Position numbers and translations under genes: made by a program | Shown: piece by piece, positions 5,110 to 10,541 of the stretch | Layout: each line of letters starts with the position of its first letter | Numbering within the stretch: position 1 is the stretch's first letter | The notes under the pieces: model-generated | The model's database searches: none | Told to the model about the DNA's origin: nothing | What the model saw: the letters and a program-made list of their open reading frames with translations, nothing else | From: Candidatus Undinarchaeota archaeon | GTDB taxonomy: Archaea; SpSt-1190 | NCBI GenBank assembly: GCA_964449215.1 | Contig: CAYVAH010000005.1 | Coordinates: forward strand, 1 to 10,541 | Direction: 5' to 3' | DNA: 10,541 bases

Positions 5110-6597
5110 GTGGAGAAACTGGTTCAGAGGCGGGTTCGCAGGTTCAAGAAGCTTGTGGAGTCCGGGGTGAACCCTTTCGAGGAGGTTAAGTATGAGCGTG
5201 ATTCCACAGCGGTTCAAATAAACAGGGAGTTTTCCATGCTGAAGCCCGGTGACGAGAACGGGCCGGTAAGAAAGGTTGCCGGGCGGATAATGGCCATTCG
5301 GGTGCATGGTGGTGTGGCTTTTGCCCCGATGATGGACTTCAGCGGGGAACTGCAGCTCGTATTCCGCAAGGACTTCTCCCCCAAGGCGTTTGGGTTTCTC
5401 CAGGAATTTCTTGATGAGGGAGATATCGTCGGTGCTTCCGGGAAGGTTATTAGGACAAAGCGCGGGACGGTCAGCCTGCTGGTTTCCGAAATAAAGCTGC
5501 TTTCCAAGGCTCTCCGTCCTCTCCCGAGCAAGTGGTATGGCTTGAAAAATGTGGAGACCAGATATCGCCAGAGGTATCTTGATCTGATAATGAATCCCCA
5601 GGTCAGGGAAAATTTTGTCAAAATTTCCAAGCTGGTCAATGGTATGAGGAACTGCCTGCTTTCCCGGGAATTCATCGAGGTCAGTACCCCTGTGCTGCAG
5701 CCCATCTATGGTGGGGCATTTGCAAGACCATTCAAGACCCACCACAACTACCTTAAGCAGGATATGTATCTCCGGATAGCTCCGGAACTCTACCTGAAGA
5801 GGCTGATAGTCGGTGGTTTTGAAAAGGTTTTTGAAATCGGGCCGTGCTTCAGAAACGAGTCCGTTGACAGCCGGCACAACCCTGAGTTTATACAGCTCGA
5901 GGCATATCAGGCATATTCCAACTACGAGGATATGATGGCTCTTGTGGAAAGCATAGTGTCGGCCGGGGTGAAGGCCGCCACGGGTGGCACAAAGGTGGAG
6001 TATGAGGGAAGGAAAATAGATTTCAAGGTGCCTTGGAAGAGGGTAACACTCGAGGCCTGCCTGGGAAAGATTGGTGTGGATATCACTGATGATAAGGCGT
6101 TGCTCCGGCGGGCAAAGGAGCTTGGGGTGGAAGCCGTGAGGGTTGGGGATGCCATTGAGGGGATATTTTCCGGGGAGGTGGAGCCCAAACTGGTCCAGCC
6201 CACCTTTGTCACCCATTTTCCCGCGGATATAAGTCCACTTGCCAAGAGATTCCCCGGAAACCCCAGGATTGCCCAGCGGTTCGAGGCTTATGTGGTCGGG
6301 ATGGAAATTGCAAATGCATACAGCGAGCTTAATGACCCAGTGGAGCAGTATGAGAGGTTTCGTGAGGAGGTTGAACTGAGGAAGAAACGTGTGGAGGAGT
6401 TCATGCCGATGGACAAGGACTATGTCCGTGCCCTCGAATATGGAATGCCTCCCACTGGTGGTCTTGGCATAGGTATTGCGAGGGTTGCCAGTGTTGTTGT
6501 GGGTAAGCCAAGCATAAAGGAGGTTATACTCTTCCCGGCTGTGGCCGCCGTGCCGGACCCAAAGGTTGTTGCGGAGATGTTCAAAATAGAAGTGTGA
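5110..6597 (+). CDS. lysS: Lysine--tRNA ligase, class II
   Basis: 495 aa with an N-terminal OB anticodon-binding domain (VAGRIMAIR, GDIVG), RYRQRYLDL, GGAFARPFKTHHN, YLRIAPELYLKRLIVGG, motif 2 FRNE, HNPEF, EIANAYSELNDP and motif 3 YGMPPTGGLGIG. Confidence 0.97.
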   Translation: MEKLVQRRVRRFKKLVESGVNPFEEVKYERDSTAVQINREFSMLKPGDENGPVRKVAGRIMAIRVHGGVAFAPMMDFSGELQLVFRKDFSPKAFGFLQEFLDEGDIVGASGKVIRTKRGTVSLLVSEIKLLSKALRPLPSKWYGLKNVETRYRQRYLDLIMNPQVRENFVKISKLVNGMRNCLLSREFIEVSTPVLQPIYGGAFARPFKTHHNYLKQDMYLRIAPELYLKRLIVGGFEKVFEIGPCFRNESVDSRHNPEFIQLEAYQAYSNYEDMMALVESIVSAGVKAATGGTKVEYEGRKIDFKVPWKRVTLEACLGKIGVDITDDKALLRRAKELGVEAVRVGDAIEGIFSGEVEPKLVQPTFVTHFPADISPLAKRFPGNPRIAQRFEAYVVGMEIANAYSELNDPVEQYERFREEVELRKKRVEEFMPMDKDYVRALEYGMPPTGGLGIGIARVASVVVGKPSIKEVILFPAVAAVPDPKVVAEMFKIEV

Positions 6598-9492: not shown

Positions 9493-10365
9493 TCATTTTC
9501 CGGTGGTATCTCTGATTTCAATTCCCCAGAGACCCGCATAGCTCTCCGCAGCCTTTCCAATGCTTTTACAGAACACCACCAGCTTTGCTGGCAGCCCGAG
9601 AATTAAGTGTTTTTCCCTGAGAGCCTTGAGATGATTCAGACCCACATATTCCCTCTCCAGTGCAAGGTAGAACTGCCTGTTGACAGGGTCCCAGGCGGCA
9701 AGGTCGAACTTGAGCGCCACCTTTGTCGGGCCGTCCCTCAGCACCCAGGTCTCAATCTTGAAGGGTTTCCACACCCTGTAGTGGTCAGGGAATCTGGCGT
9801 TTGATTCCTTGAACTCGGCGGAGACGGGGCTGTACCCCGGGGCTACAGCATAGGTTTGCCCACCGATTGATCTCCTTTCGACCAGGCCGTAGTGCTCGAG
9901 GAGGTTGATAGCCCTCTTGTTCCTGGGGGTTTCCTTCAACGGGCCTCTCTCAACTTCTTTCAGAGTTTCGAGCGGGATCCCCCCTCCTTTCTGCACGAGG
10001 GACCTGACCTTGGCCTGCAATTTTCCCTCCTGACCCCGGGTGTAAAAAATTCTACCGAAGCGCTTCCCTCCAGCTATCACGGGTTTCTGGGTATGGAGGA
10101 GTCCTTTCTTTATCCGGGACAGGACCAGCCTCATATGTGCGAGGATGTTCTTCTCAGCGGTGTTTTTCCCTATCTTCCTGCCAAACTGCATCCTGTAATT
10201 TCTTATCAGGGAAGAGCCCATTGATGGCAGCCGGGGTGTCAGGTAGTCAAGTGCGACCTCCCATATCTCGGACTCCGCGAGGGGTCCCTTTGAAAGCTCC
10301 GCCTTCACGTGCTCCCGCAAGGACTCTTCCAGCCCCTTCGTGACTATGCCTATGCTTGGCCTCAC
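9493..10365 (-). CDS. Hypothetical protein; probable winged-helix domains plus a C-terminal restriction-endonuclease-like (Mrr-type) fold
   Basis: 290 aa, GTG start with an AT-rich box upstream. wHTH-like segments ELSKGPLAESEIWE and AINLLEHYGLVERRSIGGQTY. The C-terminus FDLAAWD...YVGLNHLKAL...KLVVFCKSIGKAAESYAGLWGIEI resembles the Mrr_cat pattern. The CDS is well supported; the domain calls are inference. Confidence 0.65.
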   Translation of the reverse strand: MRPSIGIVTKGLEESLREHVKAELSKGPLAESEIWEVALDYLTPRLPSMGSSLIRNYRMQFGRKIGKNTAEKNILAHMRLVLSRIKKGLLHTQKPVIAGGKRFGRIFYTRGQEGKLQAKVRSLVQKGGGIPLETLKEVERGPLKETPRNKRAINLLEHYGLVERRSIGGQTYAVAPGYSPVSAEFKESNARFPDHYRVWKPFKIETWVLRDGPTKVALKFDLAAWDPVNRQFYLALEREYVGLNHLKALREKHLILGLPAKLVVFCKSIGKAAESYAGLWGIEIRDTTGK

Positions 10366-10379
10366 ATAATACTATAACC

Positions 10380-10391
10380 TATATAATTAAA
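10380..10391. promoter_or_regulatory. Putative bidirectional TATA core for the 290-aa gene (-) and the C/D RNA (+)
   Basis: TATATAATTAAA lies about 15-20 nt from both GTG 10365 and box C at 10408. Confidence 0.5.
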
Positions 10392-10407
10392 TCCTGCTGG
10401 TGTTTCC

Positions 10408-10540
10408 GTGATGACAAGGCTCCTCTGATAAGCTTTTTGCGACGCTCCCCTACGGGTCGCTGCGAAAAGCTCGACCAAATCCCAGGCGGGGTTTGAGAAG
10501 GGGTGCAGCCCCTTTCGGTGATGAGGATTATGAGTGCTGA
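10408..10540 (+). ncRNA. Box C/D 2'-O-methylation guide sRNA, predicted tRNA-Met Cm34 guide, with a long D'-C' insertion
   Basis: Box C GTGATGA 10408-10414; 10-nt guide CAAGGCTCCT; box D' CTGA 10425-10428; 89-nt structured linker; box C' GTGATGA 10518-10524; 12-nt guide GGATTATGAGTG; box D CTGA 10537-10540. The D guide is antisense to ACUCAUAAUCC, a CAU anticodon arm. Confidence 0.82.
10431..10515 (+). repeat. Three adjacent inverted repeats (hairpins) inside the sRNA
   Basis: H1: AGCTTTTTGC (10431-10440) with GCGAAAAGCT (10462-10471) and an inner CCC-CTAC-GGG. H2: CAAATCCC-AGGC-GGGGTTTG (10476-10495). H3: GAAGGGG-TGCAG-CCCCTTT (10497-10515). Confidence 0.75.
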
Positions 10541-10541
10541 C

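Follow-up and report, generated by a model that had tools for sequence, protein, structure and literature searches.

A dispersed three-hairpin cassette in the D'-C' loop of a putative tRNA-Met guide RNA gene of Candidatus Undinarchaeota, and its probable route into the gene

The loop between boxes D' and C' of archaeal C/D guide RNAs is reported to measure 4–10 nt in most orders and 19–21 nt in Halobacteria (PMC2584109). Pyrococcus sR49 and haloarchaeal sR-tMet, which target C34 of tRNA-Met, are described as free-standing C/D RNAs whose D guide lies on the anticodon loop with C34 at position N+5 (PMC2584109, PMC4033218). For about 80% of the tRNA-targeting sRNAs of Pyrobaculum the other guide is reported to be without a clear target (PMC6009581). 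Small repeats have been described in connection with such genes and with tRNA genes. In Pyrobaculum calidifontis, MITE-like, composite and transposed sRNAs tie a small non-coding repeat to the duplication and shuffling of C/D modules, inverted repeats flanking the sRNA-like core (Lui et al. 2018, PMC6009581). The casposon of Aciduliprofundum boonei is inserted at the 3' end of tRNA-Pro with a direct duplication of 15 bp (PMC5137440), and a palindrome is found behind tRNA genes of Methanopyrus (PMC5217627). Bacterial REP/BIME sequences and MITEs are described as short, G+C-rich, gene-less stem-loops arranged in mosaic clusters (PMC3184786).

The window considered here is a stretch of 10,541 nt (G000:C5:1-10541) from the 788-kb genome of an Undinarchaeota archaeon from hydrothermal-vent samples (G000), which was compared with nine relatives; G-numbers denote genomes and L-numbers loci, among them the sister locus L147 and the diverged allele L154, which are described below. 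The box order C, guide, D', linker, C', guide, D can be read directly at 10408–10540 of the plus strand, and the features of the locus are as follows.

9493–10365, minus strand: open reading frame of 290 aa, divergent from the sRNA gene, without a Pfam match and not part of the RNA
10380–10391, plus strand: AT-rich, TATA-like box in the interval that separates the sRNA from the divergent reading frame, conserved upstream in L147 and L154
10408–10414, plus strand: box C (GTGATGA), read from the sequence and invariant in L147 and L154
10415–10424, plus strand: D' guide of 10 nt, likely orphan, varying among orthologues
10425–10428, plus strand: box D' (CTGA), putative junction of a 26-nt deletion from the old D' to the old D (alignment with L147)
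10429–10517, plus strand: linker of 89 nt, read directly
10430–10479, plus strand: module A, consisting of a T-tract/A-tract stem, an inner GC hairpin and a GACCAAA tail (12 strict copies in G000)
10476–10495, plus strand: middle hairpin, to which A contributes its tail and B its head, differing from copy to copy
10488–10514, plus strand: module B, consisting of a GGGGTTT head and an AAGGGG-loop-CCCCTT hairpin (5 copies in G000)
10518–10524, plus strand: box C' (GTGATGA), read directly
10525–10536, plus strand: D guide of 12 nt, complementary to the anticodon arm of tRNA-Met(CAU), N+5 being C34
10537–10540, plus strand: box D (CTGA), read directly

Perfect boxes in the order C, D', C', D within 200 nt occur four times in the genome and in none of 10 Markov-resampled genomes, and genes for fibrillarin and Nop5 are encoded in the genome as well. 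The divergent reading frame stands head-to-head with the sRNA gene across the family and served as a synteny marker; the TATA-like box at 10380–10391 is the likely promoter of the sRNA. With tRNA-Met(CAU) (G000:C12:735-813), which is intronless in this genome, the D guide forms 10 Watson-Crick pairs and one G-U pair that place N+5 on C34, and 10 pairs were reached by 27 of 2000 shuffled guides. The half that carries this guide is conserved in the family and in records titled Nitrososphaera. Classed by its target, C34 of elongator tRNA-Met, the window sRNA would be a guide of the sR49/sR-tMet type: it shares with the published members the free-standing organization, the position of the D guide on the anticodon loop with C34 at N+5 and the lack of a clear target for the other guide, and it differs from them in its D'-C' region of 89 nt and in the intronless target (PMC2584109, PMC4033218). 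The best match of the D' guide among the genome's own tRNAs and partial rRNA (the 3' third of its 23S is unassembled) was 8 bp to tRNA-Arg(CCG), which was matched by 552 of 2000 shuffles, and six orthologous D' guides had no consistent site on the rRNA locus of G001, 23S having been found in one of the nine relatives. Rfam returned nothing at the sRNA locus at E<=1, nor did a scan with sigma-70 and intrinsic-terminator models, which do not apply to archaea. With a D'-C' linker of 89 nt the window sRNA falls outside the compact size of its class, defined by a short D'-C' K-loop; its orthologues are compact, and the window gene therefore descends from a compact C/D guide.

Three observations concern the surroundings. 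In the Nitrososphaera-titled records (L020–L074) the half with the tRNA-Met C34 guide is widespread and occurs with a different conserved D' guide and with loops of ~3–25 nt. Within the window, 5110–6597 of the plus strand encodes a class II aminoacyl-tRNA synthetase whose anticodon domain is of the OB type; from its motifs we take it to be the class II lysyl enzyme, the less common type in archaea. An assembly gap begins one base past box D, at the end of the window; this gap (G000:C5:10542-10710) is occupied in L157:425-650 by another repeat of several hairpins, which belongs to a second sub-family and is also found beside tRNA genes on contigs C36, C46, C17 and C12.

An earlier note, made from the sequence, had described four perfect boxes and an 89-nt linker of three hairpins, and both the direct reading and folding against 200 shuffles bear this description out. 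The linker folds into hairpins at 10431–10471, 10476–10495 and 10497–10515 with -41.6 kcal/mol (z = -3.59), and none of the 200 shuffles was as good. The fold of its minus strand is weak (z = -1.37), and over all its 142 nt the region shows no unusual stability (z = -1.31). Folding without proteins leaves both guides partly paired and the C'/D' motif without a closing stem; when boxes and guides were held open in folding, the cassette folded on itself. The repeat proper occupies 10430–10514 (85 nt), and the last three linker bases, TCG, match the ancestral 3-nt loop. An assembly artefact was considered and rejected, the linker being present in contigs of four runs, with no joint that skips it: run X2 has a single contig across the stretch, its one difference lying outside the RNA, a contig of run X3 spans 10296–10541, and runs X4 and X6 cover the stretch in pieces. 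G10455A, alone, is found in runs X3 and X4 (depth under 5), where it breaks an inner pair.

Bases 10430–10514 make up one complete copy of a three-hairpin cassette, dispersed and without genes, that adjoins the ends of tRNA and sRNA genes. The earlier note had considered a dispersed palindromic repeat and had proposed a BLASTN search for further copies; this reading is borne out by related pieces on several contigs of the genome, most of them beside tRNA genes, by a copy in a second sRNA of the genome and by orthologues without the linker. Nine of the 12 strict copies of module A in G000 are found no more than 150 nt from a tRNA or C/D gene, in a zone amounting to 1.8% of the genome, this enrichment being descriptive only, since the pattern was written after such copies had been seen; a tenth copy follows a tRNA end cut by a contig start. 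The five copies of module B in G000 comprise two in C/D loops and three behind tRNA ends. Two pairs of module B are changed on both sides among seven copies, and only these pairs were used from the MAFFT/RNAalifold alignment of seven cassettes because module A was misaligned owing to differing loop lengths. A loose inner-hairpin pattern was discarded (52 mostly chance matches), as was the long-intron setting of ARAGORN, with which tRNAs were called (many false tRNAs). The motif of the A tail is present in six of the nine relatives and in six more distant genomes of 41 searched, where it adjoins tRNA ends and box D and lies inside tRNA introns; the copies of L135 and L140 (G001) are situated in anticodon-loop introns.

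Seven distinct full cassettes of the A-middle-B type are found among the loci collected, two of which are the window's alleles; each of the other five (L147, L105, L108, L130 and L136) is followed by a copy of the sequence that precedes it. End duplications were listed 20 times at 68 distinct tRNAs (13–55 nt, mostly 15–30 nt; six in G000), 5' ends included, in a set for which the relatives' loci were picked by the A motif and in which row L116 is doubtful. The duplicate at L130 fits another tRNA-Gly better than its own neighbour. The ends of the cassettes share only AAG/CTT and form no terminal inverted repeats, their right ends vary, modules are mixed and both orientations occur. Rfam searches of 20 cassette-bearing loci gave nothing beyond tRNAs and a sub-threshold sR39 match, and module B had no exact match in a viral contig collection. 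In L105 (G007:C11), near which no tRNA was called, the cassette lies in a tandem 82-nt repeat and has a 20-nt duplicate of a TATA-like stretch. Module A also follows unannotated, mutually similar GC-rich stretches without an Rfam match (G000:C16:1-86, plus strand; G000:C3:38360-38500, minus strand; L142). These are possibly unrecognised small RNAs, and our guess would be that they are H/ACA-like.

Orthologous and other paired sRNAs were compared. The 149 half-matches in the nine relatives include 74 that pair into 37 sRNAs, with a loop of 3 nt in 16 of the 37 and of at most 23 nt in 35; the remaining two, both in G009, have loops of 78 and 87 nt. The seven sRNAs of G000 have loops of 3, 3, 3, 10, 14, 45 and 89 nt. 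An orthologous half is present beside the same divergent gene in eight of the nine family genomes, with loops of 3, 3, 3, 3, 13, 19, 22 and 78 nt, and the comparison of orthologues that the earlier note had called for thus finds the window linker absent from seven of the eight, the eighth having a different insert of 78 nt. The two inserts of G009 (L015, G009:C7:4483-4604, 78 nt; L075, G009:C35:1719-1850, 87 nt) have no duplicate, and BLAST detects no similarity between them and the window linker; module A is present in them in reverse or in both orientations. They arose independently, in the same two sRNA families as in G000. Module B directly before a C' box occurs in one of 151 genomes, G000, where it does so twice. 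From the loops of the orthologues, the unrelated inserts of G009 and this count it follows that the linker is lineage-specific and not a conserved domain.

The second sRNA of G000 that contains the repeat is L129 (G000:C14:20-110, minus strand), with a 45-nt loop of two hairpins that ends in module B and a D' guide that matches helix 69 of 23S; its likely orthologue in G004, L088, has a loop of 8 nt.

A scan of metagenomes yielded 12 loci, two of which were set aside as coming from other contexts. The ten loci syntenic with the window comprise six with loops of 3–5 nt and no duplicate, one with 22 nt, and L157, L154 and L147. L157 does not differ from the window, of which it may be the source. 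L154, with the diverged 89-nt allele, differs from the window at 7 of 89 linker positions, 19 of 290 upstream positions and none of 44 box and guide bases; set against about 7% elsewhere, the last figure is weak evidence that function is kept (p about 0.04). The fold of L154 retains the three hairpins, one pair being changed on both sides. Its last 30 linker bases are identical to those of the sRNA on contig C14 (L129), and conversion between sRNA loci may therefore also have shaped the linker.

These alleles bear on the suggestion that selection maintains the linker as a functional domain of a composite guide, acting in protein binding, processing or stabilisation, an idea that we find extremely unlikely. 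It would agree with the fact that all seven linker differences between the window and L154 spare the three hairpins, one pair having changed on both sides, with the stronger fold on the transcribed strand and with the long inserts that G000 and G009 both have in the same two families of sRNA. However, the conservation of structure belongs to the cassette, since the same structure is kept in copies beside tRNAs; the linker is lacking in seven of eight orthologues, the eighth insert being different, with module A reversed and without BLAST similarity, and module B precedes C' only in the window's own genome among the 151. The composite guide considered in the earlier note, with an additional domain for protein binding or processing, is accordingly not borne out, for the insert is limited to the lineage of the window and the loop arrangements of G009 are unrelated to it.

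L147 is represented by one metagenome contig of 1.4 kb that ends 17 bases past a second box D. It contains an intact sRNA with a 3-nt loop, 92 nt of the same cassette and then the loop-C'-guide-D unit once again, the duplicate of the 3' half amounting to 27 nt (28 counting one shared base). The cassette of L147 aligns with that of the window over its full length, including the inner hairpin and both junctions, and the alignment of the two loci contains a single gap of 26 columns between two CTGA motifs, plus an indel of 7 nt in the inner hairpin. A tree built from 62 residues of the neighbouring protein places L147 as the sister of the window and L154 (94/98); support is weak at most of its other forks.

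Three states of the locus are thus at hand, namely empty, filled with a duplicate, and internal; their order is inferred, and the intermediate rests on one contig. We consider it likely that the cassette came to lie behind box D as the 3' half was duplicated, that a 26-nt deletion then brought it inside the gene, and that it is a tolerated passenger. In the first step the cassette would have landed just behind box D, duplicating the last 27 bases of the gene; in the second, a later deletion of 26 bases between the two CTGA boxes would have removed the original second half. The bases at 10515–10541 (3-nt loop remnant, C', D guide and D) would then represent the duplicated copy of the 3' half and, since L147 carries this unit both before and after the cassette, the present tRNA-Met guide would be the duplicate, serving as the working half.

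The earlier note had placed the landing site in the D'-C' loop itself, which is probably incorrect given that L147 has the cassette behind box D together with a duplicate of the 3' half. A one-step entry into the loop, by direct insertion or by gene conversion from the C14 sRNA, with L147 as a separate event or a later duplication, strikes us as very unlikely. The 30 terminal linker bases common to L154 and the C14 sRNA suggest exchange between the two loci, and the 78- and 87-nt loop inserts of G009 have no duplicate, but the cassette of L147, a sister lineage, matches that of the window along its whole length and at both junctions, all five full cassettes elsewhere have duplicates, and the three bases before C' match the old loop. 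Against the two-step history speak several sRNAs of the family that have module A behind box D and no duplicate, as well as 20 loci with an A-like start behind a box-D unit, none of which gave a duplicate under a strict test. L178 (G001:C5:10433-10620) is a C/D sRNA with a hairpin insert followed by a degenerate copy of its last 15 bases (13/15).

Arrival from behind followed by deletion would leave a gene that may still be transcribed from the upstream TATA box into a single RNA of about 135 nt, in which the cassette would fold on itself and loop out while L7Ae, Nop5 and fibrillarin still assemble and methylate C34. That one functional RNA is still made and C34 methylated is the reading towards which we lean. 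The T5 tract early in the cassette, the lack of a closing stem for the C'/D' motif and the partial pairing of the guides when folded without proteins count against it. Oligo-T tracts are known to end transcription in archaea, and the gene might instead no longer give one RNA: transcription could stop at the T-tract of module A (T5 at 10434–10438), or the cassette could be excised, leaving inactive halves or a two-stranded guide. We hold this to be rather unlikely. Module A does usually lie right behind mature RNA ends, where terminators are situated; yet the T-tract is paired in the fold, the copies of module A inside the tRNA introns of G001 (L135, L140) must be read through, and the window and L154 have the same boxes and guides. 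The conserved guide that matches a target is, moreover, the downstream one; no second TATA-like box is visible inside the linker, and because the only such box lies upstream of box C this guide depends on read-through. A split RNA is compatible with the same two-step origin.

The mobility of the cassette is judged from its distribution only, because no mobilising enzyme was found. In profile searches of genomes 72–95% complete, nothing scored over the cut-off for Y1_Tnp (six genomes) or for Cas1, Phage_integrase, IS110 and DDE_Tnp_1 (five genomes each). TnpB gave no match over the cut-off in five genomes and one sub-threshold domain match in G001; RVT_1, the reverse transcriptase on which a SINE-like retroelement would depend, gave none over the cut-off in five incomplete genomes, a result with which a host or divergent enzyme remains compatible. 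Our best guess, to which we give an even chance, is that the duplicating insertions are made by host replication or repair copying, by way of template switching where highly transcribed RNA genes end; it is favoured because the right ends of the cassettes vary and no transposase was found. The alternative, in which an unrecognised or trans-acting enzyme makes a staggered cut, is about equally balanced with it. Quite unlikely, in our view, is that the cassettes are host signals, such as terminator or 3'-processing hairpins at RNA gene ends, which spread only by accidental duplication or conversion. The proximity of 9 of 12 strict module-A copies to RNA genes (within 150 nt, in 1.8% of the genome), the lack of transposase, integrase, reverse transcriptase and Cas1 matches over the cut-off in the genomes searched and the lack of a module-B match in the viral collection speak for such signals; on the other hand, the cassettes occur in both orientations, most RNA genes and most orthologues are without them, and a terminator would not be expected to produce duplicated gene ends.

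Known elements resemble the cassette in part. REP/RAYT and IS200/IS605 derivatives (PATE-like) have a Y1 HUH transposase or TnpB in the genome and make no target duplication; with the cassette, duplications are present and neither Y1 nor TnpB was found over the cut-off. Tyrosine-integrase scars (attL/attR) consist of a tRNA gene, the inserted DNA and a copy of the T-arm end. The copy that accompanies the cassette, in contrast, agrees with the local target in each case, a C/D half and a promoter-like stretch (L105) among them, and the inserts are 30–250 nt long and contain no genes, with no Phage_integrase match in five genomes. Duplicating insertions of the kind seen at tRNA ends of small archaea also act on C/D genes, and are therefore not tRNA-specific integrase scars. 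As in a MITE, the cassette is multicopy, short and non-coding and has empty sites in relatives; terminal inverted repeats, a short fixed target duplication and a cognate transposase (DDE_Tnp_1 and IS110 were searched) were not found. With bacterial REP/BIME sequences and MITEs it shares short G+C-rich stem-loops, mosaic clusters and the lack of genes (PMC3184786); unlike REP/BIME it is tied to the ends of stable-RNA genes, with end duplication, and no Y1/RAYT was found in six genomes. The casposon at tRNA-Pro is similar in that it is inserted where a tRNA gene ends, at the 3' side, and is accompanied by a long direct duplication (PMC5137440), whereas the cassette has neither Cas1 (five genomes) nor terminal inverted repeats and hits many different tRNAs as well as C/D RNAs. 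The elements of P. calidifontis likewise link a small non-coding repeat to C/D module duplication and shuffling, but there inverted repeats flank an sRNA-like core (PMC6009581), whereas here a separate cassette without terminal inverted repeats lies inside or behind the sRNA and the end of the host gene is duplicated. We found no description of the cassette, or of a repeat inside a D'-C' loop, in the open-access literature searched, PMC6009581, PMC5137440, PMC3184786, PMC5217627, PMC7994747 and PMC3491384 included; long-loop sRNAs could be contained in the supplements of the Pyrobaculum and Haloferax papers.

G001, G006 and G008 each have the D' guide for helix 69 in two separate sRNAs, and in one case it is combined with the tRNA-Met guide (composite sRNAs L012, L013 and L017 versus G008:C30, G006:C8 and L083). 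This is in line with the more far-reaching proposal, unlikely as it seems to us, that an insertion process aimed at the ends of stable-RNA genes copies about 25 bases, equal to one C-guide-D half, and in this way generates spare guide halves. If so, such a process, combined with the loss of sequence between boxes, would give rise to new composite methylation guides, and it would also seed tRNA introns, the window being a finished product and L147 an intermediate.

The guide itself is ordinary and of a known kind; what stands out is the unusually clear record of the repeat's route inside. The useful part is the series at one locus, from the empty site through the site filled with a duplicated half to the internalised cassette, which provides a concrete route for the duplication and shuffling of guide halves that Lui et al. 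(2018) inferred without intermediates (PMC6009581). Natural C/D RNAs with folded loops of 45–89 nt, which would be missed by length-limited sRNA finders, may in addition serve to probe the tolerance of the C'/D' motif.
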